64,000 nucleotides of DNA, taken from a bacterium. Its GTDB lineage: Bacteria; Hydrothermota; Tepidihabitantia; Tepidihabitantales; Tepidihabitantaceae. Below the pieces are notes generated by a model, which did not search any database, had not been told where the DNA came from, and saw only the letters and a list, made by a program, of their open reading frames with translations. The first letter of the stretch is position 1, and each line of letters starts with the position of its first letter. This document shows, piece after piece, positions 15,646 through 61,462 of this stretch. The stretch covers positions 2,897 to 66,896 of the forward strand of contig JBAMLV010000022.1 of assembly GCA_039793395.1 (NCBI GenBank), read 5' to 3'. Position numbers and translations under genes: made by a program.

Positions 15646-17147
15646 CTTGCCGCCTGCTCAATCCAGCGTCGCCGTTCGGCTTCCAGTGCCCGCAGGTCCC
15701 GTTCGGTAATGCCGGTGGGATAAACGCCGTTGAAACAGGCGGTGCAGAATTGACGGTCTGGGTGGTTTCCCCGAACCGCCTCAATCAGCCCGTCGTAGGT
15801 CTGATAAATCAGTTCATCCGCACCGATGAGCCGGGCAATTTGCTTCTCAGTTTTGCCCTTGGCAATAAACTCGCCCCGGGTCATCATATCAATCCCATAT
15901 ACGCAGGGGTGTCGGAGCGGCGGTGCGGTTACCGCCAGATACACCCGCCGGGCACCCGCATCCCGGACCATCTGCACCAGTTCCTTGGATGTGGTGCCGC
16001 GGACAATTGAGTCGTCAACCAGGAGGATGTTTTTGCCCTGAATCTGGGAACGGACCGGGTTGAGTTTCTGGCGCACCGAAAATGCCCGGTTGATTGTTGC
16101 CGGCGTGATAAAGGTCCGGGCGATGTAGCGGTTTTTAATCAGGCCTTCGCGCATTTCGAGGTTCATTACCCGGGCGAGGGCGCTACCAGCCGGTCGGGCG
16201 GTGTCCGGCACCGGAATGACAATGTCGGGTCTGATATTGCGTCTGAGGACCTCGCGGGCAAGGGTTTCACCGAGCCGGAGCCGGGCTTCATAAACTTCAA
16301 TACCGTCAATCACCGAGTCTGGCCGGGCAAAGTACACATACTCAAAGATACAGGTGTGGAGGTTGCCGGGTTCAATCTGGTGGTAATGCAGCCGGTGATG
16401 GCGGTCGATAAAGACCGCCTCGCCGGGTTTCACATCCCGGAACTCCTGGAAACCAATCAGATCGAGGGCAACACTTTCCGAGGCAAGGGCGTATTCATGT
16501 ACCGGTCTTTTTTTAAGCACGCTCTGGCGCAGGCTTTTTGTGCCGGTTTCAGCAGTAACCGGTCTGCTGCCGATTACCAGCGGCCGGATGCCACTGGGGT
16601 CGCGAAAGGCAACCAGTCCCTGTTGATGAATGAGCGCAACTACCGAATAGGCACCCTTTGCCCGGTTGAACACCCCCCGGACCGCCTGATAAATGTGTTC
16701 TGGTTTCAGCTGTCCGGAACGGCACTTTTCCAGTTCGTACGCAAAAACATTCAGAATCGGCTCCACATCGCAGAAACTGGTTAGCTGACGCAGGTCTCGG
16801 GTTTCCAATTCGTGGCGCAGGGTAAAGTAGTTTGTCAGATTGCCGTTATGCACCATACCGATACCATAGGGATGATTGACAAAAAATGGCTGGGCATCCT
16901 CGCTTGTGCCCGGTCCAATTGTCGGATAACGGGTATGGCCAATGCCGAGTGAGCCGGTTAGCCGGGCAAGGTTTTTTTCGTTAAATACCCGGTTGACCAA
17001 TCCGTTCCCCTTTTTCAGATGTAAGGTGACATCAGAGGTAAGGATTCCGGCTGAATCCTGACCCCGGTGCTGTAGTGCCAGCAGGCCGGTTACCAGGTCA
17101 GGTGCTACCGGCTGATTAAAATAGAAAAGCCCCAGAACACCACACAC
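15633..17147 (-). CDS. purF: Amidophosphoribosyltransferase PurF
   Basis: The initiator codon (GTG) is followed by the Ntn catalytic Cys (MCGVLG). PRPP-binding DDSIVRGTT and the C-terminal Cys cluster CTACFNGVYP are present. Confidence 0.9.
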   Translation of the reverse strand: MCGVLGLFYFNQPVAPDLVTGLLALQHRGQDSAGILTSDVTLHLKKGNGLVNRVFNEKNLARLTGSLGIGHTRYPTIGPGTSEDAQPFFVNHPYGIGMVHNGNLTNYFTLRHELETRDLRQLTSFCDVEPILNVFAYELEKCRSGQLKPEHIYQAVRGVFNRAKGAYSVVALIHQQGLVAFRDPSGIRPLVIGSRPVTAETGTKSLRQSVLKKRPVHEYALASESVALDLIGFQEFRDVKPGEAVFIDRHHRLHYHQIEPGNLHTCIFEYVYFARPDSVIDGIEVYEARLRLGETLAREVLRRNIRPDIVIPVPDTARPAGSALARVMNLEMREGLIKNRYIARTFITPATINRAFSVRQKLNPVRSQIQGKNILLVDDSIVRGTTSKELVQMVRDAGARRVYLAVTAPPLRHPCVYGIDMMTRGEFIAKGKTEKQIARLIGADELIYQTYDGLIEAVRGNHPDRQFCTACFNGVYPTGITERDLRALEAERRRWIEQAARKNG

Positions 17148-17153
17148 CCGCTT

Positions 17154-17182
17154 ATTTTAATAAAACTGCACCGAAAATGCAA
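17154..17182 (-). promoter_or_regulatory. Putative purF promoter TTGCAT-N17-TAAAAT, with the -10 ending 6 nt before the GTG start
   Basis: Minus-strand read: TTGCAT (17182-17177), a 17-nt spacer, TAAAAT (17159-17154), AAGCGG, then GTG at 17147. No SD is possible in 6 nt. Confidence 0.5.
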
Positions 17183-17263
17183 ATTGAATATTTCTTGGCG
17201 TGGCGCCACAGAAGCAGTGGGTATCTATAAACTGCAACCAGCCCTTGGGGTGTTTGTTTAGGA

Positions 17264-18505
17264 TCACGAAAGCCGGATGTTGAGCAGAGGGATTTTCAGG
17301 CGGTTCCGGGGCGGTGGAGAGATTGCCAGACCAGAGCCGATGACCTCATTACCCATTTTCCCCTTCAGGAGGTCAATCGCCTGATACAGTCGTTCCATTT
17401 TCTCCAGCCGGAGAGGGTCATCAAAAATGGTGAGCTGAATGTTTTGGGCTGAAGTCAGGTGCGTGAGGATGATGCCGGTCTGACGGTAGACCACCCCGGG
17501 TTGATAAATTGCTTCAAACCCCTGCTGCACCAGCGGGCTGAGTAAAAGCGGATATGCCGAGGGCGCTGACAGTCGTAGCGCCACCGCCCGTTCCTGAAAA
17601 TCCCTGCTGCGCAGAAAAACAATCAGGCGCCGGGGTGCCAGTTTATAGCGGCGGGCTTTGAAACAGGCAGCTTCGAGATTGGAGCTCAGATGGGCATAGA
17701 TTGTCAGCCGGTCCGCGGTCGGAGTAAAGGTCTGCGTCTTGCTGATTGACTGGTAGTCGGTTTTCGGCTCCGGAATCACCGGATAAACCAGTCGGCCGTT
17801 TAGTTCCTGCCAGATTTCAAAGTAAGGTTTGGTAAAATGCCTGCGGATGAACTCTTCAGACCGACGGGCAAAGTCCAGGGCGGTGTTGATGCCCAGTTTC
17901 CGGCACCAAGAAGCGGTGTTGTGGCCAATGCCCCAGACCTCATCAACCGGCAATTTCTGAAGGAAATAGTGAATCTGTCGGCCCGGGATTACGGTCAAGC
18001 CTCCGGGTTTTTGATAACGGGAGGCGATTTTGGCCAGCACCTTGGTCAGGCTGATACCGATTGAGACCGAGATACCAAGTTCGGTACTGATGGTTTGCTG
18101 AATCCGGAAGCCCAGCTCGGGATAGGAGCAGTGGTAAACCCGGCGCAGACCGGTGATGTCAACAAAGGCTTCATCAATTGAATACTGTTCCACCACCGGC
18201 GAGAACCTTTTGAGAACTTCCATCATCCGGACCGAGAACAGGCTGTATTTTTCATAATCGGAGTTGATAATAATTACCTGCGGGTAAAGTTTCACCACTT
18301 CCCGAATGCGCATTCCTCGTTTTATGCCCAGCCGCTTTGCCTCATAACTTGCCGCGGTCACAATTCCTCTTTCCCGGCCGACCACCACCGGTTTGCCCGC
18401 GAGGGCAGGGTTAGTTGCCTGCTCACAGGCAACAAAGAAGGCATCAGCATCAAGGTGGAGAATCGCATTATGCCAGTCAAATACGGTCAGCGGCTGATTA
18501 TTCAT
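17264..18505 (-). CDS. Y-family translesion DNA polymerase (UmuC/PolY2-like)
   Basis: LDADAFFVACEQ and SIDEAFVDITG catalytic motifs; 413 aa. The start overlaps the lexA stop (ATGA). Confidence 0.85.
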   Translation of the reverse strand: MNNQPLTVFDWHNAILHLDADAFFVACEQATNPALAGKPVVVGRERGIVTAASYEAKRLGIKRGMRIREVVKLYPQVIIINSDYEKYSLFSVRMMEVLKRFSPVVEQYSIDEAFVDITGLRRVYHCSYPELGFRIQQTISTELGISVSIGISLTKVLAKIASRYQKPGGLTVIPGRQIHYFLQKLPVDEVWGIGHNTASWCRKLGINTALDFARRSEEFIRRHFTKPYFEIWQELNGRLVYPVIPEPKTDYQSISKTQTFTPTADRLTIYAHLSSNLEAACFKARRYKLAPRRLIVFLRSRDFQERAVALRLSAPSAYPLLLSPLVQQGFEAIYQPGVVYRQTGIILTHLTSAQNIQLTIFDDPLRLEKMERLYQAIDLLKGKMGNEVIGSGLAISPPPRNRLKIPLLNIRLS

Positions 18506-19086
18506 CGGTATTTCCGGATAACCGCAATGACCACCCCGCCGATTTTCAACTCCTGTTTCGGTTTGACCGGTTGGTAGCGGTTATTGGCGGGAATCAGGGA
18601 TATTTCGGTTCCCTGACGGTGGAAGTATTTTATGGTCCATTCGCCGTCCACCTCGGCAATTACAATATCGCCGTTTTTGGGCGACAGCGACCGATCGATC
18701 AGCACCAGGTCACCGGGCAGAATCCCGGCATCCAGCATTGAGTCCCCGGTTACCTTCAGCAGAAATGTGGAGCTGGAGTTTTTCACCAGCCATTGGTCAA
18801 GCGAGATTTTGTCCAGCAGTTCTTCTTCCGCCGGAGAAGGAAAACCGGCTTCAACCGTACCCAGCAGTTTCAGCGGTGTAATAAGCGTTCCGGGGATGAG
18901 TCGGCCCGTGACATCCTGGTCTACAATCTGCAACTCCTTCAGCCGGGCAACCAGCCGAAAGACCGCATTCTTGGAACGCCAGCCAAAGAGTCGAGCGATT
19001 TCGGAATAGGAGGGCATCCGGCGGTGCTCAAGGTAAAACCGCCTCAGGCGTTCAACTTTTTCCTTCAGGTCCGGTGTCTTGCGCAC
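18502..19086 (-). CDS. lexA: LexA-type SOS repressor (wHTH plus S24 peptidase)
   Basis: N-terminal wHTH (PSYSEIARLFGWRSKNAVFRLVARLKE), an Ala-Gly cleavage site (VEAGFPSP), the Ser nucleophile GDSM and the Lys in EWTIKYF; 194 aa. GTG start. Confidence 0.85.
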   Translation of the reverse strand: MRKTPDLKEKVERLRRFYLEHRRMPSYSEIARLFGWRSKNAVFRLVARLKELQIVDQDVTGRLIPGTLITPLKLLGTVEAGFPSPAEEELLDKISLDQWLVKNSSSTFLLKVTGDSMLDAGILPGDLVLIDRSLSPKNGDIVIAEVDGEWTIKYFHRQGTEISLIPANNRYQPVKPKQELKIGGVVIAVIRKYR

Positions 19087-19092
19087 AGAATA

Positions 19093-19121
19093 ATTATAGT
19101 GAACGATTGTTCACCTGTCAA
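19093..19121 (-). promoter_or_regulatory. Consensus sigma70 promoter of the lexA operon (TTGACA-N17-TATAAT)
   Basis: Minus-strand read: TTGACA (19121-19116), a 17-nt spacer, TATAAT (19098-19093), 6 nt, then GTG at 19086. Confidence 0.65.
19099..19114. promoter_or_regulatory. SOS box (Cheo-type GAAC-N4-GTTC) inside the lexA promoter spacer
   Basis: A perfect 16-bp palindrome GTGAACGATTGTTCAC. The core GAACGATTGTTC matches the GAAC-N4-GTTC LexA operator class known from Firmicutes and several other phyla. Confidence 0.65.
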
Positions 19122-19134
19122 GAAAAATTTATGG

Positions 19135-20019
19135 CTAATTTTCAATTCCCCGGCCATTAAAATCCGGGGTGTAATCCGGCGTGGCTGAGGAGAGTTCCTG
19201 GAAAAACCCCTGCTCAAAGCCGAGGGAAAGAAAGTATTCTTTTATTTCCTGGTATTCGGCAGCGCTCAGGCGCCGGTTCATTCCCGGCAGCCGGTCTGCC
19301 TGATAGGCAGGATAATACTGTGCCATCAGACTGATGTGGGTCCGGGGTCCGAGATTGTCGCTCAGCCAGGCGAGGATTTTTTTGGAGTCCTCAATCTGGC
19401 CCGGGAGGACCAGGTGCCGGATGATGAGCCCGCGCTGGATGATGCCTGCCTCATCGTAGATGTTTTCACCTACCTGCCGCTGCATCTCCAAAATTGCAGC
19501 CGAGGCGTATTTGAAATAATCCGGGGCTGAGGAGTAGCGGCGTGCCAGTTCGTCTGAATGGTATTTTAAATCGGGTAGATAGATTGCGACCAGACCTTCC
19601 AGCCGGCGTAGCGTTTCCACCTTCTCATAGGCGTTGGAGTTCCAGAGGATGGGAATTTTCAATCTTTCCTTGGCCACCTTCAGCACCGGCAGTAACTGGA
19701 GCGTATAATGGGTCGGGGTTACCAGATTGATATTGTGCGCACCCTGTTTTTCAAGATTGAGCATAATCTGCAGGAGCTGGTCCGGGCTGACCTTACTCCC
19801 GAATCCCAGCTGGGAGATACGGTAGTTCTGGCAGAAGCGGCAGCGTAGGTTGCAATGGGAGAAGAAGATGGTGCCGGAGCCACGGGTGCCAGATACCGGT
19901 GGCTCTTCCCAGAAGTGGAGCTGCGCTTGAGCGATTTCAATCTCATCGGTTGACCGGCAGCGGCCCGGCTTGACCGCACGGTCAATGTTACATTCAAACG
20001 GACAGGCGGTGCAGCGCAT
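19135..20019 (-). CDS. Radical SAM protein, PflX/pyruvate formate-lyase-activase-like
   Basis: CNLRCRFCQN (CxxxCxxC) cluster motif and an N-terminal extra Cys motif (CTACPFEC); 294 aa. An ATGACA-N17-TATAAT element sits 10 nt upstream of the ATG. Confidence 0.7.
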   Translation of the reverse strand: MRCTACPFECNIDRAVKPGRCRSTDEIEIAQAQLHFWEEPPVSGTRGSGTIFFSHCNLRCRFCQNYRISQLGFGSKVSPDQLLQIMLNLEKQGAHNINLVTPTHYTLQLLPVLKVAKERLKIPILWNSNAYEKVETLRRLEGLVAIYLPDLKYHSDELARRYSSAPDYFKYASAAILEMQRQVGENIYDEAGIIQRGLIIRHLVLPGQIEDSKKILAWLSDNLGPRTHISLMAQYYPAYQADRLPGMNRRLSAAEYQEIKEYFLSLGFEQGFFQELSSATPDYTPDFNGRGIEN

Positions 20020-20189
20020 AGTTCATTTAATTATAAATTATCGGCAGACAGATGTCATCTTTAGTGCCCTGCCCACCGGGCAATCCCCGGGGTGATGCAG
20101 GAGGTTTGGTCGTAAATCAGGGGCGATATTGGCGCTGGTGGCGGAGTGCGTCTGAGTGGATTTATCAGAGTTGTAGGGTACAATTGGAT

Positions 20190-22355: not shown

Positions 22356-22356
22356 A

Positions 22357-23034
22357 TCATGGTCTGGTGCCGGGACAGGCACGGACGCACAGTCCGCAGA
22401 TGAACTGGTGGACATAGTGCTGGCGCTGAAACTCCTTCAGTTTTTCAAAACAGGCATAATGGTCAAACTGCTCGGGCTTTTCCCGGATGGCATTTGCCGG
22501 GCAGGCGGTGATGCAGCGCCGACACTCGTCACAGTCCTGATTGAGCGGAATTCCGGGTTCAAGTTCCAAGTCGGTCAGGATGGTTACCAGGCGGACCTGT
22601 GCCCCATATTCCGGGGTTACCAGGAGGTTATTTCTGCCGAGCCAGCCCAGTCCGGCAGCAATGGCGACCCGTTTGTGGGAAAGGTGGGCACGCTGGTTCT
22701 GCCAGTCAATAACCTGAGATGCGGGGATGGGCAGGGCGTGGTAGTCGTTGTGCTGTAAATAGAGCGTGAGGTCAAGGGCAATCCGGTCCAGGGCAAAGTT
22801 AACCTGGCGGTAGTGGTGTTCGTAAAGCAGGTCCGGATGGCCGGGCAGAAGGTCAAGCACCGGTCGGGAGAGCGGGATGGCGAGCGATAGGGCGCAGGGC
22901 AGGCGGCGAAAGGTATCTTCGGGCAGGAGAAAGTCGTCGGTTTTAATTTTTCTCATGTCAGCAATGCCGAACAAGGCAACGCCCCGGGTCCGGCAGAGTG
23001 ATTCCAGTTCGGTCCGCAACCTGAGCAGGCTCAT
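22357..23034 (-). CDS. QueG-related 4Fe-4S protein (epoxyqueuosine reductase/reductive dehalogenase superfamily, short form)
   Basis: [31 protein letters not shown] resembles the QueG core. It has two Cys cluster motifs ([21 protein letters not shown]). At 225 aa it is shorter than canonical QueG. ATGA overlap with mnmG. Confidence 0.5.
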
Positions 23035-24923
23035 TTTCTGCTTTCCCTTATTTTAACCGGCCGGCTTTTTTTATCAAGATAAACGCTCAGGGCAAAGATG
23101 GCGGCCGGCGTTACGCCGGGAATCCGGTGTGCCTGACCGATTGATGACGGCCGGAGCCGGGTGAGTTTCTCCCGGATTTCTGTGGACAGCCCGGGAATCC
23201 GATAGTAGTCAATATCTTCCGGAATGCGCAGTTCCTCCAGTTCGTTGAAACGGAGTTGCTGGCGCTTCGTCCTTTCAATGTAACCTTCATATTTCACCTC
23301 CACCTCCACCAGTTCCTGGACCGTCAGCGGGATATCAGGTGCAGATTCGGTCAGCCGGATAAGCGACTGCCAGTCAACTTCCGGACGGCGCAGTAGTTCC
23401 AGCGCTGTTACTGGTTCTTTCAATGGGGCGGTTCCCAGGGTGCGTAGCAGCCGGTTTAACCGCTCTGAGGGGTAGATTCGGCGGGATTTGAGCCAGTTGA
23501 GCGTGTTTTGAAACTGCAGCTGTTTTTTCACAATCTGCTGATAGCGCGTCTGGTCCAGAAGACCGAGTTCATAACCCTTGGGGCTCAGGCGCAGGTCGGC
23601 ATTGTCTTCGCGCAGCAGGAGTCGGAACTCAACCCGGGCGGTAAACATCCGGTAAGGTTCGTCGGTTCCTTTAGTTACCAGGTCGTCAATGAGCACGCCA
23701 ATATACGATTCGGAACGGGAAAGGATAAAGGGCGGTTTTTCCTGTGCCCGCAGTGCGGCATTAATTCCGGCAATCAAGCCCTGGGCGGCGGCTTCTTCAT
23801 AGCCGGTTGTGCCGTTGATCTGGCCCGCGAAGTAAAGATTTTTTATCAGCCTTGTTTCGAGGGTCGGAAACAACTGGGTCGGGTCTGCGTAGTCGTGTTC
23901 AATCGCATAACCCGGCCTGAGCATCCGGCAATTTTCCAGACCGGGAATGGAGTGGAGCATTTTTTCCTGAATCGCCACCGGCAGTGAGGTGGATATTCCA
24001 TTCGGATAGCATTCAATCGTGTCCGTGCCTTCCGGTTCAATGAAGATGTGATGTCGCTCCCGGTCGGCAAATTTAACCACCTTGTCTTCAATTGAAGGGC
24101 AGTAGCGCACCCCGCGTCCTTTGATGATACCGGTGTAAAGCGGGGATTGCTTTAATCCCTTCCGGACGAGCGCGTGGGTTTTTGCGGTGGTCCAGGTGAG
24201 ATAGCAGACTGCCCGGTTTACCGGTTGCCATTCAGTCCAGAAGGAAAAGGGCCGGGGCGGTTCATCACCCTCCTGGCGCTGGAGCCGCTTGAGTTCAACC
24301 GTGCGGATGTCAATCCGCGGTGGCGTACCGGTCTTGAATCGTCCGAGTCGGAATCCCAGTTCTGTTAGATTCCGGCTCAGCAGGTTTGCCGGTGCCTCAC
24401 CCAATCTGCCGGCAGGAAAGTGGACCAGGCCGATGTGAACCAGACCGGACAGGAATGTGCCTGGAGCAATAATCACCGTTTTGCTGTAAAACCGTTCGCC
24501 GGTTTCGGTCTCCACCCCGATCGCAGTTCTGCCCCGGGTTAGAATGCGGGCGCAGGTTCCCTGGCGCAGGACCAGGTTTGAGGTTTGCTCCAAGGTTGAA
24601 CGCATAATCTGCCGGTAAAGTTGCCGGTCAACCTGGACCCGGGAGGAGCGGACCGCTCTGCCGGCGCTGGTATTCAGTAGACGGAAGTGAATGCCGGCTT
24701 TATCAGTTATGAGCGCCATCTGACCCCCAAGGGCATCAATCTCTTTGACCAGTTGACCTTTACCGATGCCCCCAACCGCGGGATTACAGGACATCAGGGC
24801 AATGGTGTCCAGATTCTGGGTTAAAAGCAGGGTTTTCTGTCCGAGCCGGGCGCTTGCCAGTGCGGCTTCACAACCGGCATGGCCCGCACCGACCACCAGG
24901 ACATCAAACCGTTCGCGGTTCAT
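23031..24923 (-). CDS. mnmG: tRNA uridine 5-carboxymethylaminomethyl modification enzyme MnmG (GidA)
   Basis: [26 protein letters not shown] motif and full-length MnmG similarity. ATG 24923 is chosen because the ORF-track TTG (24959) is the TTG of a TTGACA -35 hexamer. Confidence 0.9.
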
Positions 24924-24930
24924 CAGCAGA

Positions 24931-24959
24931 ATTTTATTCAGCCGGGTTATAAATGTCAA
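24931..24959 (-). promoter_or_regulatory. Putative mnmG promoter TTGACA-N17-TAAAAT, 7 nt upstream of the ATG
   Basis: Minus-strand read: TTGACA (24959-24954), 17 nt, TAAAAT (24936-24931), TCTGCTG, then ATG at 24923. Confidence 0.55.
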
Positions 24960-25024
24960 AACGGCACGCCCCGGCGCTTATATATATTTGACAATAAAAT
25001 CGGTGGCGGTAAACTTGTTTTGTT

Positions 25025-25843
25025 ATGCAGACATCGGGTCGCGGGTTGCTACTCCTGCTCCTGCTGATTATCCCCGGTTATGCCATTTTTGAAGACAGCG
25101 AGTCCGGGCCACGGGCAGAAGGGATGGGAGGCAGTTTCACGGCGGTGGCAGACGATATTGGCGCCGTGGACTTTAATCCGGCGGGTCTGGCGCTGATAAG
25201 TGAGAAGCAGTTTCTGGGCTTTTATAAACTGCTTTATGGTGGTGTCGGCGTTAATCTCCACACCATCCAGGCCGGTGCTGGTGTGCCGGTCAGAAATCTG
25301 GGCGCGATTGCGCTCCGGTTTCAGGAGACCGGTTTTAAACTTCAGTCCCAGCGTTCGCTCAAACTGGCACACGGGTTCCAGATAGCAGAAGGGCTGATGT
25401 TCGGTTATGGTATTAACGGTTATAGTCTTTATCAGCAGAATTTCGGAGCCGGGTTTGCACTGGGTGTGGATTTGAGCCTGCTTGCCCGGTTTGCCCGTTT
25501 CTGGAGCGCGGGTTTTTATGCCCGTAATGTTAATATGCCGAGAATTGGCAGTTCGGAGTTGCCGCAACGGTTGGTTTTTGGGATAGGATTTTCACCCCGG
25601 CCCGGGATTCAGTCGGCGGTGCAGGTGGCAAAGGAGCCGGGAATCCGGACGCAGTTTGCGTTTGGTCAGGAGTTTGAGGTGGTGGCGGATTATCTGTCCC
25701 TGCGTGCCGGCGTTGAGACTGAGCCAGTGCGGTTTTCTTTCGGTGTGGGAACCGGTTTCCGGAAGGTCGGGGTTGACTATGCGCTGATCACCCATCCGGT
25801 TCTGCCCTTCAGCCACAATTTCGGGGTGCGGGTCAGGTTTTGA
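25025..25843 (+). CDS. Putative outer-membrane beta-barrel protein
   Basis: Signal peptide (LLLLLLLIIPGYA). N-terminal GMGGSFTAVADDIGAVDFNPAGLA motif, as in several OM channel and PorV/FadL-like families. C-terminal VRVRF ends in an aromatic residue. Confidence 0.5.
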   Translation: MQTSGRGLLLLLLLIIPGYAIFEDSESGPRAEGMGGSFTAVADDIGAVDFNPAGLALISEKQFLGFYKLLYGGVGVNLHTIQAGAGVPVRNLGAIALRFQETGFKLQSQRSLKLAHGFQIAEGLMFGYGINGYSLYQQNFGAGFALGVDLSLLARFARFWSAGFYARNVNMPRIGSSELPQRLVFGIGFSPRPGIQSAVQVAKEPGIRTQFAFGQEFEVVADYLSLRAGVETEPVRFSFGVGTGFRKVGVDYALITHPVLPFSHNFGVRVRF

Positions 25844-25847
25844 TCTG

Positions 25848-34381: not shown

Positions 34382-34409
34382 TTGACTTTGAATTTATCTG
34401 AGTTATCAT
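34382..34409 (+). promoter_or_regulatory. Putative promoter of the hdr cluster (TTGACT-N16-TATCAT)
   Basis: TTGACT at 34382-34387 and TATCAT at 34404-34409. The ATG at 34421 is 11 nt downstream, with no SD. Confidence 0.45.
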
Positions 34410-34420
34410 TTTTTCTTGCG

Positions 34421-34813
34421 ATGAATTCAGCGGCGAACTCCTCCCTGGTTTCCCGAATTGAGGAATTGAGCGGGCAGCGGGTGCTGGACTGTTATCAGTG
34501 CGGGTGCTGTACTGCTGGCTGTCCGATTGGCGAGTTGATGGACCCCGCGCCGAGTAAGGCAATCCGGCTGTTGCAGCTGGGACGGGCAGAAGAGTTGCTG
34601 GCAAGTGAAGGTATCTGGTTGTGTGCCAGTTGTCTGGTGTGCGGGACGAGGTGTCCGCGGAATGTTGATTATGCAAAGATTGCCGAGGCATGCCGGGCAA
34701 TTGTCCTGCGGGCAAAGCGGAGTGTGGTTGACCCGGACCGGGTCAGCCCTGAGCAGTTGCAGGATATACCCCAGCAGGCATTCATTGCCAGTTTCCGGAA
34801 GTTTTCGGTATGA
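34421..34813 (+). CDS. hdrC: Heterodisulfide reductase subunit C (HdrC-like, 2x[4Fe-4S])
   Basis: CYQCGCCTAGCP and CASCLVCGTRCP motifs; 130 aa from ATG 34421. The ORF-track start at 34241 precedes the predicted promoter. Confidence 0.85.
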   Translation: MNSAANSSLVSRIEELSGQRVLDCYQCGCCTAGCPIGELMDPAPSKAIRLLQLGRAEELLASEGIWLCASCLVCGTRCPRNVDYAKIAEACRAIVLRAKRSVVDPDRVSPEQLQDIPQQAFIASFRKFSV

Positions 34814-44343: not shown

Positions 44344-44345
44344 TT

Positions 44346-50548: not shown

Positions 50549-50577
50549 TTGACATTTGAAAGATAGTTTCTAATTAT
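50549..50577 (+). promoter_or_regulatory. Putative promoter TTGACA-N17-AATTAT, 6 nt upstream of the Na/Pi transporter ATG
   Basis: TTGACA at 50549-50554, AATTAT at 50572-50577, ATG at 50584, no SD. Confidence 0.4.
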
Positions 50578-50583
50578 TTAGTA

Positions 50584-52584
50584 ATGCGACCGATGGTGAT
50601 GACGGTGCTGTTCACAGCGGTGGTGCTGGTGGCGAAGCCGCTGGAATTGAGGTTTGCGGTCGTTGGCGATGTGAATATTTCGGGCAATAAACAGGTGGGA
50701 GAAACGGGTGCCGAGCTGGCACGGCCGCTGACCGTTCAGGTTCTTCACCAGGGCCAGCCTGCGGCTGATGTGCCGGTTCGGTTCTCAATTCTCCACCAAC
50801 CGCAAGAAAACAGCTACGCCGGCACTCCCTGCCGGTTATCGGATACGCTGGTTCTAACCGACCGACTCGGATTTGCCAGGACCAAACTGGTGCTGGGCAG
50901 TTATCCGGGCGATTATCTGATCCGGGCAGAAACGGGCGAACTGGGGCTGATTTTCACCATTAAGGGGCTAAGAAGGGGTTGGTATTTTTTAACAATACTG
51001 GAAGTGATTGGCGGCATGGCGATATTTCTGTTCGGTCTATATTACGGTTCAAAGGGATTACGCCGGCTTGCCGGCGACCGGTTAAGGCAGGTGCTGTTTT
51101 CGCTCACCCGGAATCGACTGCTGGGACTGGTCGTCGGGGTTATGATTACGGCGATATTCCAATCTTCAAATGCCACGGTCAGCCTGCTGATATCGCTGGC
51201 ATCAACCGGACTGCTGACGCTGGGACAGTCGCTGGGGGTGATTCTTGGCGCTGATATCGGAACTACCCTTACGGTTCAGTTATTATCCTTCCGGATATAT
51301 GATTACGCACTGCTGGCAATTGCGATTGGTTTAGTGCTGATGAATATCAGTTGGCGGTTGCGTGATATTGGTCAGGCGGTGTTTGGATTCGGTTTGGTTT
51401 TCTTCTCGCTGAAGGTGGTTTTGACCGCGGTTGAGCCGGTAAAGTCGGTTCCGCAGGTCCAGGAGCTCCTCCGGGCTGGCAGTCTGCATCCGCTTTACTC
51501 ATTCATAATTGCACTTGTTTTTACCGCCCTGTTAAGGTCCTCGGCGGCAACGATTGGCATCATGGTTGGGCTTTCATATTCCGGACTGGTAGAGTTAAGA
51601 AATGCGATTCCATTTCTGCTTGGTGCTAATGTTGGCAGCGGATTAAGTGCGCTCTTGGTGTCCTGGCAGGGCACGGTTGAAGGTAAAAGGGTGGCTGCTG
51701 CTCAGGTTATTTTTAAGGTGCTTACCGTGCTGCTGGTGCTGCCATTTGTGCCATTAATAGTAAATGTGTTTGCCCGAACTTCGTCTTTGGTTGCCCGACA
51801 GATTGCGAACGCTCATACATTTATTAACATTTTCGTGGCGTTGTTGGTGCTGCCTTTTCTGGGTCTATTCACCCGTTTGCTGGAACGGCTGATACCGGAC
51901 CGGACCCAAGAAAGGATGGCGCCACGCTATCTTAATCCGGCAGCATTAACCACTCCGGAACTGGCGCTGGCGCAGGCAACCCGGGAAATTTTAAGAATGG
52001 GGGAAATTGTCCAGCAAATGCTCGACACCGCCCTGACCGTTTTCTTGGAAAATGATAAGGATGGATGCCGGCGACTGGCGAATGAAGATGACCGGGTGGA
52101 CAATCTGGAAGTGGAAATTACCGGCTTTTTATCCAAAATTTCCACGGAATCATTAAGTGCGGAAAGTTTCCGTCGCATCCGGGCGCTGTTTTATATAACC
52201 GATGAACTGGAGCATATTGCCGATATTGTATCAAAGAACATCGTAGTATATACCAGAAAGAAAATTAATAACAATCTGGCATTTTCCGCTGCCGGACTAA
52301 AAGAAATAAAGGATTTTCATCAGGAGGTGGTTAGAAATCTGTCCCTGGCGTTAAACTGTCTGGCAACCTGGGACACCGATATGGCAAAACAACTGGCTGA
52401 TAAAAGGGAGTGGGGAGTGGAGAAGAAGCGGGAATTACACAATCGCCACCTGGAGAGGTTAAACCAGGGCTTGAAGGAAACAATTGATACTTCAACAATT
52501 CACCTTGATTTAATCTCGGACCTGGAAAGGATAAATTTTCACTGCTCGCAAATCGGTGTAGCAATCATCGGAATAAGAACCTGA
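50584..52584 (+). CDS. Na+/phosphate symporter family protein (NptA/YjbB-like) with PhoU-like C-terminal domains and an N-terminal extracytoplasmic extension
   Basis: Na/Pi cotransporter repeats (QSSNATVSLLISL, RSSAATIGIMVGL) and a C-terminal helical PhoU-like region. The first ~130 aa are a beta-rich extra domain behind a signal/anchor helix. Confidence 0.85.
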   Translation: MRPMVMTVLFTAVVLVAKPLELRFAVVGDVNISGNKQVGETGAELARPLTVQVLHQGQPAADVPVRFSILHQPQENSYAGTPCRLSDTLVLTDRLGFARTKLVLGSYPGDYLIRAETGELGLIFTIKGLRRGWYFLTILEVIGGMAIFLFGLYYGSKGLRRLAGDRLRQVLFSLTRNRLLGLVVGVMITAIFQSSNATVSLLISLASTGLLTLGQSLGVILGADIGTTLTVQLLSFRIYDYALLAIAIGLVLMNISWRLRDIGQAVFGFGLVFFSLKVVLTAVEPVKSVPQVQELLRAGSLHPLYSFIIALVFTALLRSSAATIGIMVGLSYSGLVELRNAIPFLLGANVGSGLSALLVSWQGTVEGKRVAAAQVIFKVLTVLLVLPFVPLIVNVFARTSSLVARQIANAHTFINIFVALLVLPFLGLFTRLLERLIPDRTQERMAPRYLNPAALTTPELALAQATREILRMGEIVQQMLDTALTVFLENDKDGCRRLANEDDRVDNLEVEITGFLSKISTESLSAESFRRIRALFYITDELEHIADIVSKNIVVYTRKKINNNLAFSAAGLKEIKDFHQEVVRNLSLALNCLATWDTDMAKQLADKREWGVEKKRELHNRHLERLNQGLKETIDTSTIHLDLISDLERINFHCSQIGVAIIGIRT

Positions 52585-52614
52585 AAATAAAAAGAGCCCG
52601 GAAAACCCGGGCTC
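52584..52614 (-). terminator. Intrinsic terminator oriented for the minus strand
   Basis: Minus-strand read: GAGCCCGG-GTTTT-CCGGGCTC followed by TTTTTATTTT. On the plus strand the stem is followed by AAGTGC with no T-run. Confidence 0.6.
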
Positions 52615-52793: not shown

Positions 52794-52994
52794 CTTGCCT
52801 TTATATTTAAGTCACTTAAAATAAGTAAGTTATAGAATTTACCGGAAAACCACAAAGAAAAGAAGAATAATTATTGCCTAAATTATCAGCGGTGATGTCG
52901 TAGTTTTCTGCTATCGTTTATGGTTTCGGGGTGGTGATGGCAGGTTTGTGGTTGCGACTTTTTATTTTATTTAATCATGTCGAGGGTCAAATGC

Positions 52995-53021
52995 TTGACT
53001 TGAGAGCTGGGCGGGTATAAT
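52995..53021 (+). promoter_or_regulatory. Putative promoter TTGACT-N15-TATAAT
   Basis: TTGACT at 52995-53000 and TATAAT at 53016-53021. The leader contains AAAGGAG before ATG 53049. Confidence 0.45.
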
Positions 53022-53048
53022 TATTTACCAAAATGAAAGGAGTAAAAG

Positions 53049-53696: not shown

Positions 53697-53726
53697 GTTA
53701 CGCGGCTCTTACTCATCATTTTACCA

Positions 53727-54443: not shown

Positions 54444-54504
54444 CAATTATTATTACTTTGGTAATGTATATAAATGGAGTGCTGGCGATTAAAAAGGAGG
54501 AATT

Positions 54505-55980
54505 ATGCGCCGTAGTTTTAGATTTGCCGGGAGCCTGACGCTTTCCGGATTGGCAGGTTTAGTGATATTTGCCGGTTGTCCGAAGCCGCCGCTTACTCCT
54601 GATAAGCCTCGTGGTGCGGAAATAACTTTTGCCAATACTGTTTACTCCTGCACCACCAGCACCACCGACCCGCAGGGTCAGCAGGTGGCGTTCCAGTTTG
54701 ACTGGGGGGATGGCGTGAGGTCGGAATGGTCGGGCTGGCTGGCGGGCGGCACACCGTTTGCCGATACTCATACCTATGTCCAGAGTGGCGAGGTGAAGAT
54801 TACCGTTCGGGCAAAAAACAGCCGGGGAAAGGTTTCAGGCTGGTCTGAACCGCTGATTGTCAATGTCAGCCCGGGTGAGGGTAATGTGCTTTGGAGGTTC
54901 GGTTATTATGACCCGGAATCGCCTGAGGATTCGGCCGATTTTACCGGTCACACCTTTGCCATCGGTCCGGAGGGGCAGATTTACATCGGTTCGGGAGACA
55001 TCTGTGCCTTACTCTGCCGTAAGAGCAATGGGAGTAGACGCTGGGAGTTTATCGACCCGGATGAAGAGGAGTTTTCGGTGGCACCGGTTGTTGGTGAGGA
55101 CGGAACGGTTTATGTCGGGACCGAAGGTGGAAAGTTTTATGCCCTGACCGCTTCCGGGACCAGGAAATGGGAGGTTACATTCCGGTCCGGGATTATCGTT
55201 CCGCCCGCGCTTGGCGCCGATGGCACCATTTTTGTCCAGCCCGAAGATGACACCGTTTTTGCCCTTGACCCGAACAATGGTGCCCGCAAATGGGGCTTTT
55301 ACGCCGGGGGTGGGGTTCAGCCGCCAGTAGTCGGGGCGGACGGAACAGTCTATGTTTCCCATGATGACACGCTATTTGCACTTGACCCGACAAATGGCGG
55401 TATCAAATGGCGTTATGGAATGAGGCAGGCAATTGCCACGGCGCCGGCAGTTGATGTCAGCCGGAATGTGGTCTACACGGTGGATGATGATGGCTGGCTG
55501 GCTTCAGTCAATCTTGCCGATGGCAGTGAGAACTGGCAGGTCTGGGTTGCTGGTGATGCCTCGTCCCCGGTCATTGATGAGAACGGCAGAATTTACATCA
55601 CCGGTGGTGGACGGCTGCTGGCATTGAATCCGGTGAATGGCGGTGTTGAATGGGAATGGGTGTCACCGGTTCCGGAGGAGATGACGATGCCGGCGGTTTC
55701 CAGTGAGGGGATTGTTTACCTGCTGGTTTTCTCGTCAACGGTGGCGGGTGCGGTTGATACTTTGTATGCAGTCAACCACGACGGCAGCCGGCGCTGGGCG
55801 GTCGGGCTCGGGGTCGGAACCCCGCTGGATTTTGTCTCGGCACCGAAGATTGACGACCGGGGATTTGTCTATATCGGTGATGGCACCCGGGGCTGGTGTG
55901 TTGTCGGTAAGGGTGGCCCGGCGGCATCATCCTGGCCGATGTTTCAGGCCGATATCAGGAATTCCGGAAGGGCAAGATAA
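54505..55980 (+). CDS. Lipoprotein with a PKD-like domain and a PQQ-type beta-propeller
   Basis: Lipobox VIFAGC. FQFDWGDGVRSEWSGW (PKD-like). Repeated GTVYVG...FYAL...G..KW propeller blades. AAGGAGG SD. Confidence 0.7.
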   Translation: MRRSFRFAGSLTLSGLAGLVIFAGCPKPPLTPDKPRGAEITFANTVYSCTTSTTDPQGQQVAFQFDWGDGVRSEWSGWLAGGTPFADTHTYVQSGEVKITVRAKNSRGKVSGWSEPLIVNVSPGEGNVLWRFGYYDPESPEDSADFTGHTFAIGPEGQIYIGSGDICALLCRKSNGSRRWEFIDPDEEEFSVAPVVGEDGTVYVGTEGGKFYALTASGTRKWEVTFRSGIIVPPALGADGTIFVQPEDDTVFALDPNNGARKWGFYAGGGVQPPVVGADGTVYVSHDDTLFALDPTNGGIKWRYGMRQAIATAPAVDVSRNVVYTVDDDGWLASVNLADGSENWQVWVAGDASSPVIDENGRIYITGGGRLLALNPVNGGVEWEWVSPVPEEMTMPAVSSEGIVYLLVFSSTVAGAVDTLYAVNHDGSRRWAVGLGVGTPLDFVSAPKIDDRGFVYIGDGTRGWCVVGKGGPAASSWPMFQADIRNSGRAR

Positions 55981-55997
55981 CCGGAGGTGGCATCCGG

Positions 55998-58973: not shown

Positions 58974-59365
58974 TGAAGCCGAAAAAGAGTTGCCGCACTT
59001 CACCGCTGAGTAAAAACGACCTGCTGCGGCTGGAGAAGGCGCTCCTGGAAGAAAAGCAGCGCATCCTCAGGCAGAGCAGTTTTACCCAGAAGGTAATGGA
59101 CTCACCCGCGGCTGCCGGTGACCTGTCCAGTCATCGGACCCATGTGGCGGACCAGGGGACGGAAAACTATCAGCGGGAGTTTGCCTCCCAGCTCAAGTCA
59201 ATTGAATCATCGGCGCTGCGTGAGATTGATGATGCGCTTGCCCGGATTGCCAGCGGTACTTACGGCATGTGCGAGCGGTGCGGCGAGCCGATACCGCGGG
59301 CACGGCTGGAGGTTGTTCCCTATGCCCGGTTGTGCATGAAGTGTCTGAAAGCCAGCAGGTGCTAA
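58973..59365 (+). CDS. DksA/TraR-family C4 zinc-finger protein
   Basis: CERCGEPIPRARLEVVPYARLCMKC C4 finger with an upstream coiled-coil region. TAATG overlap with ileS. Confidence 0.8.
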   Translation: MKPKKSCRTSPLSKNDLLRLEKALLEEKQRILRQSSFTQKVMDSPAAAGDLSSHRTHVADQGTENYQREFASQLKSIESSALREIDDALARIASGTYGMCERCGEPIPRARLEVVPYARLCMKCLKASRC

Positions 59366-59401
59366 CCGCGCGGGCAGCAGGGTTGAAACCGGCAGTCGGC
59401 A

Positions 59402-60172
59402 ATGGGGGGTATCAGCAGTAGCGGGCGGGAGTTAAATCGTCAGGGGGAATTGATAAAAAACATCAAATTGACAATTGAGTTTGACGGCACCGATTATGCC
59501 GGGTGGCAGATTCAATCCGGGCAGCCGACAGTTCAGGGGTTGATTGAAAATGCGGTCGCACGGGTGTTCGGTCAGGCAATAACCGTTTATGGCTGCAGTC
59601 GCACTGACGCCGGGGTTTCGGCGCGCAACTACACCGCCAATTTTTTCATGCCGCTAAAACTGCCGGTTGACCGGATACCAGCCGCCCTCAATCACTATCT
59701 GCCCCCAGCGATTTATGTCCATCAGGCAGAAGTGGTGCCGGACGATTTTCATGCCCGCTATTCAGCCCGGGTGAAAACCTATGTCTATCACCTCATCTGC
59801 GGCCGGTCACCACTGCGCCGGCGATTTGCCTGGGAGTATCCGGGCAGGCTTGACCTCAGCCGGCTGAAAAAGGGGGCGCGGCTTTTTGTCGGGACCAGGG
59901 ATTTCAGCCGCTTCTGTTTTGTCCGGTCGGGGAACGGGGTCTGCACGGTAAAATCAATCACCGTCCGGTCGCGGCAGGATGAACTGCTGATTACGGTCCG
60001 GGGAGACCGGTTTCTTTACAAACTGGTCCGGCGGATGGTCGGCGCGCTGGTTGCCTATGCGGCGGGACGCATCACCAGCCGGGACATCCGGGCAGCACTT
60101 GCGGGCAGAAAACACAAGCCGTTTATTACCGCACCGGCACACGGGCTGATTCTGGAACGGGTTGGCTATTAA
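59402..60172 (+). CDS. truA: tRNA pseudouridine(38-40) synthase TruA
   Basis: IKLTIEFDGTDYAGWQIQ and the catalytic CSRTDAGVSA. The exact start is uncertain because the N-terminal ~17 aa are not conserved-looking. Confidence 0.9.
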   Translation: MGGISSSGRELNRQGELIKNIKLTIEFDGTDYAGWQIQSGQPTVQGLIENAVARVFGQAITVYGCSRTDAGVSARNYTANFFMPLKLPVDRIPAALNHYLPPAIYVHQAEVVPDDFHARYSARVKTYVYHLICGRSPLRRRFAWEYPGRLDLSRLKKGARLFVGTRDFSRFCFVRSGNGVCTVKSITVRSRQDELLITVRGDRFLYKLVRRMVGALVAYAAGRITSRDIRAALAGRKHKPFITAPAHGLILERVGY

Positions 60173-60175
60173 AAT

Positions 60176-61426
60176 TTACTGCTGCCGGTAGCGCCGGGCT
60201 GCGTCGTTCAATGCCTGGGCCGGGCTTTTTTCGCCGAGGGTTGCCGCTTCCAGTTCCTCGACCAGCGCCTTTCTGCCAGCAAGCCATTTTAAGCCCCGGG
60301 GTTCAAACACACCGTATTCCATCTGCCGGTAGGCGGCAAGCAGACCCGGGGTGGTGGCAAACCGCTCCTTCAGCCTGGGGTCGCTGAGACAGGAGCGGTG
60401 GACAGGCACATACCAGGTTCCGAGTGACCAGCGGACCTGCTGTTCAGGGGCGATGAACCATTTGATAAACCGCCAGGCCGCATCCTTTTCCGCCTTTGAG
60501 GCTTTTTTGAACATCCCGATATTGGTGCCGTAGATAATTGCCGCTGGTCTGCCTTCAACCGGAATTGGCGCCATACCGACCGGAAACTTTTCCTGACCGA
60601 CCACCGGTGCGCGCCAGGTGGAACTGCCGGTGAGGGTGGCAATCCTGCCCGTCAGAAAGTCCTCCATCGGGTTCCGGCCTGAGGCGGTGGTCTGGACGCT
60701 GTCTTTGACAATCAGGTCAACCTGAAATGAGAGTACCTGAACTCCGATCGGATTGTTGAACTCCGGTTCACCATCCTCCTGACTGAGAAATCTGCCCCCG
60801 CGCTGAAAGAGCATTGAGCCAAAAATCCAGATGTCGGTGCCGTTGGCGGTTGCCCAGGTGTGGACAGTGCCGTCCGGATTGCGGCGCACCAGTTTCCGGC
60901 ACATCTGCCGGAATTCGGACCAGGTCCGGGGAAAGGAGTCATAGCCGGCAGTCCGGAGCAGGTCCACATTGTAATAGTAAACCGGTACACTTTTGTTAAA
61001 GGGCAGGGTCAGTATTTTTCCGTCCCAGCGGTTGTTTTCCAGTAGCGCTGGATAGATGTCGGCAAGCTCGGCGCCAGGGATGCTGTCGGGTCCCCGGATA
61101 TAATCTTCCAGGAACTCCAGTTGACCCGCAGTGTATAACTGAGTGGTCCAGTTTTCATACATCTGGGCGATAGTCGGCGGACGCTGGACCGCAACCGCAC
61201 CCAAAAGTTTCTGTGCCAGTGCGTCGTAATTTCCCATCCCCACCAGTTCAATGCTGATGTCCGGGTGCTGCCGTTCAAAATCGGCGACCATTTCCTTAAG
61301 TGTCTTCTGCGCCTCGCCACCCATTGCATGCCAGAACCGGACTTTGACTTTTCGGGCGGAGCGGGAACTGCATGCCGGGGAAAGGACCGAAATTACGAGT
61401 GTAAATATCACCAGCCCGCGGGGCAT
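60176..61426 (-). CDS. ABC transporter extracellular solute-binding lipoprotein (family 1, sugar-type); no permease or ATPase genes adjacent
   Basis: Lipobox VLSPACSS and SBP family-1-like sequence throughout. ATG 61426 is chosen because the ORF-track TTG (61462) is part of a TTGACA -35 hexamer. Confidence 0.8.
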   Translation of the reverse strand: MPRGLVIFTLVISVLSPACSSRSARKVKVRFWHAMGGEAQKTLKEMVADFERQHPDISIELVGMGNYDALAQKLLGAVAVQRPPTIAQMYENWTTQLYTAGQLEFLEDYIRGPDSIPGAELADIYPALLENNRWDGKILTLPFNKSVPVYYYNVDLLRTAGYDSFPRTWSEFRQMCRKLVRRNPDGTVHTWATANGTDIWIFGSMLFQRGGRFLSQEDGEPEFNNPIGVQVLSFQVDLIVKDSVQTTASGRNPMEDFLTGRIATLTGSSTWRAPVVGQEKFPVGMAPIPVEGRPAAIIYGTNIGMFKKASKAEKDAAWRFIKWFIAPEQQVRWSLGTWYVPVHRSCLSDPRLKERFATTPGLLAAYRQMEYGVFEPRGLKWLAGRKALVEELEAATLGEKSPAQALNDAARRYRQQ

Positions 61427-61433
61427 AAAAATT

Positions 61434-61462
61434 ATTTTAATGGTCAAATTCGGTAGTGTCAA
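61434..61462 (-). promoter_or_regulatory. Putative promoter TTGACA-N17-TAAAAT, 7 nt upstream of the SBP ATG
   Basis: Minus-strand read: TTGACA (61462-61457), 17 nt, TAAAAT (61439-61434), AATTTTT, then ATG at 61426. Confidence 0.55.

Follow-up and report, generated by a model that had tools for sequence, protein, structure and literature searches.

Promoter geometry in a WOR-3 genome points to frequent leaderless expression of operon-leading genes

In the genomes classified as group C by GeneMarkS-2, operon-first genes have a Pribnow box 6–8 nt upstream; this arrangement is found in 25–50% of operons, with Shine-Dalgarno (SD) sites used elsewhere (Lomsadze et al. 2018, PMC6028130). Typical members are Mycobacterium tuberculosis, Streptomyces and Corynebacterium (PMC6028130), and group C genomes using genetic code 11 are reported to be almost all of high GC content (bioRxiv 10.1101/2022.07.25.500264). 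A second described system is found in Deinococcus-Thermus, where an expression pattern has the ‘-10 region adjacent to ORF’ and where Zhong et al. (2025, PMC12340547) appear to report promoter tests; the phylum pattern, which includes D. deserti (de Groot et al. 2014, as cited in PMC6028130), is described as backed by dRNA-seq and proteogenomics. An earlier survey took a TANNNT box about 10 bp before the translation start as the mark of a leaderless gene, and described the trait as confined largely to a few groups, with relatives differing from one another (Zheng et al. 2011, PMC3160421).

The DNA considered here is a window of 64,000 nucleotides (the whole stretch that was analysed) from a metagenome-assembled genome (MAG) of the uncultivated phylum WOR-3. 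The genome comes from a hot spring, is approximately 79% complete, and comprises 1.28 Mb at 55% GC. It resembles group C, the architecture known from Actinobacteria and Deinococcus-Thermus, in the share of operons concerned (here ~23–34% of leading genes), in the use of SD sites on the remaining genes, in having both ATG and GTG at the predicted 5′ end, and in that its starts are mis-called by gene finders lacking a promoter model. It differs in its WOR-3 host, in a very strong -35 element (TTGACA) with a preferred 16-nt spacer, and in GC content, which is intermediate in this genome and only 31–39% in relatives bearing the signature.

As in Deinococcus-Thermus, the -10 box abuts the ORF in many genes of a phylum that contains thermophiles, and leaderless mRNAs would be a major mode of expression. 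There, the pattern has experimental support, whereas the WOR-3 case is computational throughout, and the share of all genes is ~14–16%, below the 36–46% that Zheng et al. (2011, PMC3160421) predicted for that phylum. That survey, which used the same inference, predates WOR-3 genomes; to its type of evidence the present case adds coupling to a -35 element and conservation at the level of orthologues. No report linking WOR-3 to leaderless expression or SD use was found in the literature searched. The layout is well known in other phyla and appears to be unreported for WOR-3; what is new is the host phylum, the patchy spread between families and the presence in low-GC members.

Promoters and starts of the focal genes

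A sequence-only reading of the window had described seven genes with a -35/-10 promoter ending directly, or almost directly, before the start codon. All seven geometries are present letter for letter (Table 1), and an independent consensus scan scored lexA at 12/12, mnmG and the radical SAM gene at 11/12 each, and purF at 9/12. The identities are backed by Pfam: purF, lexA (Peptidase_S24), mnmG, Na_Pi_cotrans plus PhoU, SBP_bac_1/8 (a solute-binding protein, SBP), Radical_SAM and a 4Fe-4S dicluster protein. An eighth gene of the leaderless type, divergent from mnmG, was absent from that reading.

Table 1. Promoter and start elements in the window (window positions; elements listed from -35 to start codon)
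Feature	Position	Strand	Elements
purF promoter and start	17145..17183	-	TTGCAT 17182-17177, N17, TAAAAT 17159-17154, N6, GTG 17147-17145, then Cys-Gly; alternative -35 reading TTTGCA 17183-17178, N18
lexA promoter and start	19084..19121	-	TTGACA 19121-19116, N17, TATAAT 19098-19093, N6, GTG 19086-19084
lexA inverted repeat	19101-19112	-	GAACAATCGTTC, in spacer between -35 and -10
radical SAM promoter and start	20017..20058	-	ATGACA 20058-20053, N17, TATAAT 20035-20030, N10, ATG 20019
mnmG promoter and start	24921..24959	-	TTGACA 24959-24954, N17, TAAAAT 24936-24931, N7, ATG 24923-24921
Additional leaderless-type gene	24988..25027	+	TTGACA-N16-TAAACT-N9-ATG, start 25025; 10/12 match
hdrC-like 4Fe-4S promoter and start	34382..34423	+	TTGACT 34382-34387, N16, TATCAT 34404-34409, N11, ATG 34421
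Na/Pi cotransporter-PhoU promoter and start	50549..50586	+	TTGACA 50549-50554, N17, AATTAT 50572-50577, N6, ATG 50584
SBP promoter and start	61424..61462	-	TTGACA 61462-61457, N17, TAAAAT 61439-61434, N7, ATG 61426-61424

In orthologues from related genomes the hexamers and their distances are kept while the spacers have diverged. For purF, the order -35/-10-N6-ATG/GTG-TGT-GGC recurs with diverged spacers in all six family-level orthologues. L001, G012 and six family members all retain the mnmG geometry, and in every relative MnmG begins 5–8 residues ahead of its FAD motif. The -10 box of the Na/Pi transporter, AATTAT, is weak; its five family orthologues (5/5) likewise combine a perfect TTGACA with a weak -10, followed after N6–8 by ATG or GTG. 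The SBP geometry is kept in orthologues and paralogues alike. Two genes stand at the edge of the distance peak seen genome-wide: a leader of 3–4 nt is probable for the radical SAM gene (N10) and one of 4–5 nt for the hdrC-like gene (N11), as judged from their promoters. In the six family relatives the radical SAM gene shows N6–8, a fully leaderless geometry. The N11–12 of hdrC is kept in G003, G046 and G041, and the gene is SD-led in G024 and G030.

It had been argued that the purF start is fixed independently, since the catalytic Cys must directly follow the initiator. This holds in so far as no alternative start exists and the N-terminus reads M-C-G in most relatives examined; it is weakened by a short propeptide in some relatives. 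At lexA, a GAAC-N4-GTTC repeat, the consensus of the Cheo-type SOS box, overlaps the promoter as in LexA autoregulation through such a box, and is a putative LexA site. Promoter and box are identical in G024 and G030, where N6 or N7 and an ATG follow. A second promoter-located GAAC-N4-GTTC of an SOS regulon was not found in the 79%-complete genome, the lexA box being the only one. Regulator sites such as this putative LexA box thus sit in promoters that would double as the translation-start region.

Genome-wide distribution and gene context

Genome-wide counts took in 1130 genes, from our own simple ORF and codon-usage calls, whose starts were picked using the same motifs as those under test. 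This circularity is addressed by the decoy, distance and context controls, and still affects the estimated fraction of leaderless-type genes: the geometry is present at 154 of the 1130 (about one in seven, ~14–16%), with the last base of the -10 box at a distance (d) of 6, 7 or 8 nt from the start in 47, 46 and 27 of them, respectively.

Within the window, matches to a promoter followed by a start numbered 14, compared to 3.5 ± 1.7 (maximum 8) in 200 dinucleotide shuffles. Across the whole genome, promoters with up to three mismatches were scanned for an ATG or GTG opening an ORF of 100 aa or longer, and gave 48, 47 and 30 cases at d=6, 7 and 8 against a background of 9 per bin at d=15–59. A sharp peak at 6–8 nt, the position of the group C -10 (TANNNT) box, is thus the answer to the genome-wide distance distribution that the sequence-only reading had proposed as a check. 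Irrespective of ORFs, ATG and GTG are enriched at d=6–10 after 353 strong promoters, by 3–4 fold exactly at d=6–8, and TTG, CTG and control triplets show no enrichment there. In a decoy test on 850 genes, again with up to three mismatches, the geometry occurred at 132 genes and at four of the decoys, which were matched in-frame internal ATG, GTG or TTG codons. Enrichment over controls, on which the reading had staked itself beforehand, is therefore clear in shuffles, decoys, distance and context.

The signal depends on the -35 element. With TANNNT alone the peak in this genome is 1.5–2-fold, because TANNNT is common at 55% GC, and the distance signal becomes sharp only once a -35 is required. 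Under the full geometry, the excess per 100 kb was 0.1 in 150 kb of E. coli and 9.1 in the WOR-3 genome, and 146 kb of non-WOR-3 loci showed no distance peak. As a positive control, Thermus pTT27, from a phylum known to be leaderless-rich, had a -10-only ratio of 4.3, on few counts, where E. coli had 0.98; when a -35 was required as well, nine promoters were left in 150 kb of Thermus, too few to inform.

The geometry is a property of leading genes. It is found at 80 of 278 divergently transcribed genes (29%, or 34% counting weaker matches), at 20 of 169 genes with an upstream gap of at least 100 nt, at 32 of 133 with a gap of 45–99 nt, at 14 of 61 with 25–44 nt, and at three of 458 with less than 25 nt. 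The contrast claimed between operon-leading and operon-internal genes is therefore borne out, strong SDs being common internally. Among candidate leading genes, 132–158 of 580 carry the geometry. Overall, roughly 23–34% of leading genes are of this type, a fraction that depends on our own gene calls and is comparable to the ~25–50% of operon-first genes that characterises group C. TANNNT lies at d=5–9 in 192 of the 580, compared to ~97 in any other 5-nt bin, and is not enriched before tightly packed genes.

The anti-SD sequence CCUCC is intact at the 16S rRNA 3′ end (...GGATCACCTCCTTTCT), and SD 6-mers precede 140 genes compared to 18 decoys, so that the remaining genes have SD-type ribosome-binding sites as in group C. 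Not every leading gene is of the leaderless type, a strong SD being present at ~27% of divergent leading genes; an SD 5-mer precedes only three of 154 leaderless-type starts. The genes for FtsA, FtsZ, MurG and IleS have AGGAGG or GGAGG 4–10 nt upstream of the start. SDs had been described at these and at two further internal genes, and are present at all six; the names given to the last two, ‘ftsL’ and ‘PQQ lipoprotein’, lack Pfam support.

Nature of the element and competing explanations

Among 156 start-proximal TANNNT motifs, TTGACA (at most one mismatch) lies at a spacer of 16 in 62 and of 17 in 24, with 0–3 cases at each of the other spacers between 8 and 28; the sequence logo reads TTGACa/TATAAT. 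Its coupling to TTGACA at 16–17-nt spacing marks the -10 box as part of a promoter, as opposed to an AT-rich ribosome site.

A large minority of transcription units, roughly between a quarter and a third of operons, are very probably expressed as leaderless or near-leaderless mRNAs. Promoters of the housekeeping sigma factor (TTGACa-N16/17-TAtaaT) would place the last T of the -10 box 6–8 nt upstream of the first letter, A or G, of an ATG or GTG start codon. Transcription by RNA polymerase usually begins some 7 nt downstream of the -10 box, preferably at a purine. The transcript would thus start at the start codon or within 1–2 nt of it, and its 5′ region would leave no room for an SD site. 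The ribosome would recognise the 5′-terminal AUG or GUG directly, via a 70S/IF2-dependent route such as has been described for leaderless mRNAs of other bacteria; operon-internal genes, together with roughly one leading gene in four, would use GGAGG-type SDs pairing with the intact anti-SD. Both the transcript 5′ ends and the mode of ribosome recruitment are inferred, the former from the promoter geometry. Further promoters upstream may yield leadered isoforms in addition.

Four other explanations were weighed. The least credible, to the point of carrying practically no weight, is that promoter-like hexamers pair with start codons by chance: even shuffled windows contain a few matches and about half of the 14 in the window lie away from gene starts, but the excess over shuffles and decoys, the sharp distance peak and the conservation in orthologues led to its rejection. 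It is highly improbable that TANNNT acts instead in translation, as an AT-rich enhancer or non-SD ribosome-binding motif like that of group B. The motif is AT-rich and its position 6–8 nt before starts is also that of a ribosome-binding site (PMC6028130), and motifs of this kind are present in Bacteroidota and further bacteria of the FCB group, near which WOR-3 is often placed. Group B motifs, however, precede all genes (PMC6028130), whereas this one is nearly absent from operon-internal genes, is coupled to TTGACA 16–17 nt upstream in 86 of 156 cases, and occurs in a genome with an intact anti-SD and GGAGG in use.

The two remaining alternatives accept the promoters as real. In one, translation would begin at a downstream in-frame codon, the promoter-proximal ATG or GTG being incidental and the first codons a 5′ UTR. 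Several leaderless-type genes do have other in-frame starts close by, and the public calls on the source contig place the SBP and Na/Pi starts downstream, yet we regard this as very unlikely: it is ATG and GTG, not TTG, CTG or control triplets, that are enriched at d=6–8, long ORFs continue in frame from the promoter-proximal codons, PurF requires its Cys right after the start, the SBP would lose its signal peptide, and the MnmG N-terminus agrees with relatives. In the other, start-proximal promoters exist and most expression comes from promoters further upstream or from read-through, leaderless isoforms being minor or conditional. This is unlikely, though less so than the others. Read-through is conceivable at purF and lexA, which lie 45–116 nt from upstream genes on the same strand, and a promoter is found inside the 3′ end of mnmG, ahead of the next gene; against this, 80 cases fall in divergent intergenic regions with no upstream gene on the same strand, and the retention of near-consensus hexamers at an unchanged distance in different genera argues for working promoters. 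Leaderless or near-leaderless expression of leading genes therefore remains the preferred reading.

Spread within WOR-3 and gene-start annotation

Sampling of WOR-3 took in 60 genomes. The signature is strong in six of 16 sampled family-level groups (f1, f2, f8, f9, f12 and f17), including the genomes of 31–39% GC, and was undetectable in five of the 16 (f5, f6, f10, f11 and f13). It is more probable than otherwise that WOR-3 represents a further major lineage, besides Actinobacteria and Deinococcus-Thermus, with regular leaderless expression, patchily distributed and contradicting the reported link to high GC. If so, the range of frequent leaderless expression would extend to an uncultivated phylum of mid and low GC, and the phylum would offer a series of gains and losses in which to study the turnover of translation-initiation modes.

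The main value of the layout is practical, as it shifts gene-start annotation: among the seven focal genes, there are four for which public calls on the same DNA conflict. The starts proposed earlier for mnmG and the SBP prove to be right, the TTGs that open the longest ORFs (24959 and 61462) being the first three bases of -35 hexamers. In all four disputed cases a second public gene call agrees with the proposed starts (mnmG, 630 aa; SBP, 416; Na/Pi, 666; hdrC, 130). Competing public calls extend mnmG to 642 aa (+12 residues) and the hdrC-like gene to 186 aa (+56 residues), and those on the source contig shorten the SBP to 382 aa and the Na/Pi transporter to 663 aa. The proposed SBP start restores a predicted signal peptide that the 382-aa call removes. 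Genome-wide, the longest ORF reaches upstream of the proposed start in 54 of 154 leaderless-type genes, and in ten of these it opens on the TTG of the -35. For proteins taken from WOR-3 MAGs for modelling, expression or comparison, a start model that is aware of promoters is advisable.

Depletion of TTG is not a signature of the leaderless-type starts, 9% of which are TTG compared to 8.5% in SD-led genes. Several of the TTG starts are directly followed by an ATG (TTGATG), which is then the more probable start.

Promoters that abut start codons in the window

Re-read on its own coding strand, each of the seven -35/-10/start arrangements described in the sequence-only reading proved exact (see table), and Pfam backs the identities of the genes concerned. 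In an independent consensus scan, the promoters of lexA, mnmG and the radical SAM gene matched at 12, 11 and 11 of 12 positions, and purF at 9 of 12 in a TTTGCA-N18 version; the scan also returned an extra case. Allowing at most three mismatches and a distance (d) of 6–8 nt between the end of the -10 hexamer and the start codon, the window holds 14 promoter–ATG/GTG matches, including the five main sites (N6–N7 in the table's first five rows), against 3.5 ± 1.7 (maximum 8) in 200 dinucleotide-preserving shuffles.

Promoters and associated features in window coordinates; Nx before a start codon is the number of nt separating it from the -10 hexamer
Feature	Arrangement	Position	Strand
purF	TTGCAT-N17-TAAAAT-N6-GTG	start 17147	-
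lexA	TTGACA-N17-TATAAT-N6-GTG	start 19086	-
mnmG	TTGACA-N17-TAAAAT-N7-ATG	start 24923	-
Na/Pi-PhoU transporter	TTGACA-N17-AATTAT-N6-ATG	start 50584	+
solute-binding protein (SBP)	TTGACA-N17-TAAAAT-N7-ATG	start 61426	-
radical SAM	ATGACA-N17-TATAAT-N10-ATG	start 20019	-
HdrC-like	TTGACT-N16-TATCAT-N11-ATG	start 34421	+
extra case, consensus scan	TTGACA-N16-TAAACT-N9-ATG	25025	+
lexA promoter		19084-19121	-
inverted repeat in lexA promoter	GAACAATCGTTC	19101-19112	
example of 16-nt spacer		24988-25015	
MDLKFIRENP-starting gene	TTGACC-N16-TACAAT-N7-ATG	63192-64000, to ~64442 (C22:66088-67338)	-
candidate promoter in mnmG 3' end	TTGATA-N16-TAAAAT	23050-23077	-
gene after candidate promoter		22357-23034 (ATG 23034)	
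tRNA-Leu(GAG)	TTGACA-N16-TACAAT (region 61482-61617)	61524-61605	+

The leaderless geometry is also present at the MDLKFIRENP-starting gene, whose N-terminus we take to be seryl-tRNA-synthetase-like and whose start lies just beyond the window. Within the 3' end of mnmG, a promoter-like element ends 15 nt ahead of the next gene's ATG, which points to a promoter within mnmG's coding sequence that would give a short leader.

Genome-wide enrichment, gene context and the nature of the -10 element

The genome comprises 1.275 Mb in 25 contigs, at 55% GC, and is rated 79% complete; the window spans C22:2897-66896 of it. The genome-wide distribution of -10-to-start distances, proposed earlier as a check, has a sharp peak over background: measured to an ATG or GTG that begins an ORF of 100 aa or more, there are 48, 47 and 30 cases at d = 6, 7 and 8 versus 9 per bin at d = 15–59. 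When ORFs are disregarded, ATG is found past 353 strong promoters 23, 25 and 17 times at d = 6–8 versus ~6, and GTG 14 and 11 times versus ~5; TTG, CTG, ATA and GTA are not enriched past these promoters.

Genes (1130) were called by our own simple codon-usage model. In a matched decoy test of 850 genes, requiring an in-frame start 5–9 nt past TANNNT and at most three total mismatches to TTGACA/TATAAT, the geometry was found at 132 real starts versus 4 of an equal number of internal in-frame ATG/GTG/TTG codons. Over all genes this leaderless-type class numbers 154, with 30 more at four mismatches. It is context-dependent, occurring at 80/278 genes with a divergent upstream neighbour and, for same-strand gaps of at least 100, 45–99 and 25–44 nt, at 20/169, 32/133 and 14/61, but at only 3/458 where the gap is below 25 nt. 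TANNNT alone lies at d = 5–9 in 192 of 580 candidate leading genes versus ~97 per other 5-nt bin; tightly packed genes have no such enrichment.

AT-rich non-SD ribosome sites have been described for FCB-group bacteria (PMC6028130), and TANNNT close to a start could be read as one. Upstream of 156 start-proximal TANNNT elements, however, TTGACA (at most one mismatch) occurs 62 times at a 16-nt spacer, 24 times at 17 and 3 times at 18, with 0–3 at each remaining spacer from 8 to 28 nt, and the aligned logo reads TTGACa-N16/17-TATAAT with no extended -10. This coupling and the logo together exclude the ribosome-site reading and identify the element as part of a promoter. Among leaderless-type promoters genome-wide (own gene calls), spacers of 16, 17 and 18 nt number 103, 43 and 8, so that 16 nt outnumbers 17 nt, the textbook optimum in E. 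coli, by more than two to one.

Conservation and spread among WOR-3 bacteria

Orthologues were compared among 60 genomes of the phylum. The nearest MnmG (80% identity), from a 'candidate division WOR-3 bacterium' MAG in a species-representative genome collection, is preceded by TTGACA-N16-TAAAAT-N8-ATG; the mnmG geometry is kept in 6/6 same-family members and in genome G012, with differing spacer sequences, and is weaker in family f8. For purF, -35/-10-N6-ATG/GTG followed by Cys-Gly is found in 6/6 family members (the G041 promoter was read by eye). The Na/Pi transporter has a perfect TTGACA, a weak -10 and N6–8 in 5/5 orthologues, and the SBP geometry is kept in 5/6 orthologues plus two paralogues. 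The radical SAM gene has N6–8 in relatives, making the window's N10 an outlier. For hdrC, N11–12 is kept in three genera (G003, G046, G041; loci L246-L248), probably reflecting, from the sequences, a conserved 4-5-nt leader. One genus (G024, G030; L249/L250) instead has an SD-led hdrC (GGGTGAGGT-ATG), an example of how initiation mode can turn over among near relatives.

The lexA promoter is identical in G024 and G030, including the GAACAATCGTTC repeat (arms GTGAAC/GTTCAC) between -35 and -10, presumably a Cheo-type SOS-box-like element. No other promoter-located GAAC-N4-GTTC occurs in the 79%-complete genome, so a wider SOS regulon is not visible.

The distance peak was also sought in 16 family-level groups, each sampled over 32-339 kb. 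It reaches significance (Poisson P < 1e-3) in f1, f2, f8, f9, f12 and f17, a set that includes genomes of 31-39% GC; f3 and f20 have a weak peak, and the sampled DNA of f5, f6, f10, f11 and f13 has none. The excess is 0.1 per 100 kb in 150 kb of E. coli K-12 versus 9.1 in the window's genome, and 146 kb of non-WOR-3 loci has no clear peak. In Thermus thermophilus pTT27, whose phylum is rich in leaderless genes, -35/-10 matches are too few; the -10-only ratio there is 4.3 versus 0.98 in E. coli.

Start codons and modes of initiation

RNA polymerase initiates ~7 nt past the -10, preferring a purine. With N6–N7, the first transcribed nucleotide would be the start codon's own A or G, and by analogy the 5'-terminal AUG or GUG may then be decoded without an SD, as experiments in Mycobacterium and Deinococcus have shown (work cited in PMC6028130). 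Geometry, enrichment, context dependence, -35 coupling, orthologue conservation and agreement with protein N-termini are all seen in the sequences; the leaderless interpretation is supported at the computational level, and the observation behind it stands confirmed. The arrangement matches that of GeneMarkS-2 'group C' genomes, in which a Pribnow box lies 6–8 nt ahead of operon-first genes, 25–50% of operons are leaderless and SDs are used elsewhere; such genomes abound in Actinobacteria (90%) and Deinococcus-Thermus (97%) and are seldom met among Proteobacteria and Firmicutes (PMC6028130). TA-like signals led Zheng et al. 2011 to the same inference (PMC3160421), and Zhong et al. 2025 describe -10 elements adjoining ORFs in Deinococcus-Thermus (PMC12340547). 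According to the MetaGeneMark-2 preprint (bioRxiv 10.1101/2022.07.25.500264), nearly all code-11 group C genomes have high GC, a link that WOR-3 families at 31–55% GC do not fit. Nothing on WOR-3 together with leaderless or Shine-Dalgarno turned up in the searched literature; this is a new phylum for a well-known architecture, not a new mechanism.

The 16S rRNA 3' end (...GGATCACCTCCTTTCT) indicates an intact anti-SD. SD 6-mers precede 140 genes versus 18 decoys, and strong SDs ~27% of divergent leading genes, while a 5-mer SD is found at only 3/154 leaderless-type starts; both initiation modes therefore probably operate in this organism. The SDs claimed for six operon-internal genes are all present: FtsA, FtsZ, MurG and IleS are Pfam-confirmed, with AGGAGG/GGAGG 4–10 nt ahead of their starts, but the names 'ftsL' and 'PQQ lipoprotein' find no Pfam match.

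As the sequence-only reading had held, the ORF-track TTG starts at 24959 (mnmG) and 61462 (SBP) are the first three bases of -35 hexamers. Exact-sequence look-ups revealed conflicting public gene calls over the window. A second assembly, whose longest contig is 559 kb, has the proposed starts, giving MnmG, SBP, Na/Pi and HdrC-like proteins of 630, 416, 666 and 130 aa, versus 642, 382, 663 and 186 aa on the window's own 74,789-nt contig. The 642-aa MnmG begins on the -35 TTG; the 382-aa SBP loses both its hydrophobic N-terminal stretch and the Cys of MPRGLVIFTLVISVLSPAC..., which favours the promoter-proximal start. The public record of LexA (194 aa) begins where proposed, and the 294-aa radical SAM protein has records from several sources. 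Genome-wide, 54/154 leaderless-type genes could also start at an in-frame codon further upstream, and in 10 of these 54 the longest ORF opens on the -35 TTG.

Behind the confirmed tRNA-Leu(GAG), the following gene has candidate starts inside the tRNA in our ORF calls. If it instead starts ~9 nt past the tRNA, 3' processing would produce a near-leaderless mRNA by cleavage rather than by transcription initiation.
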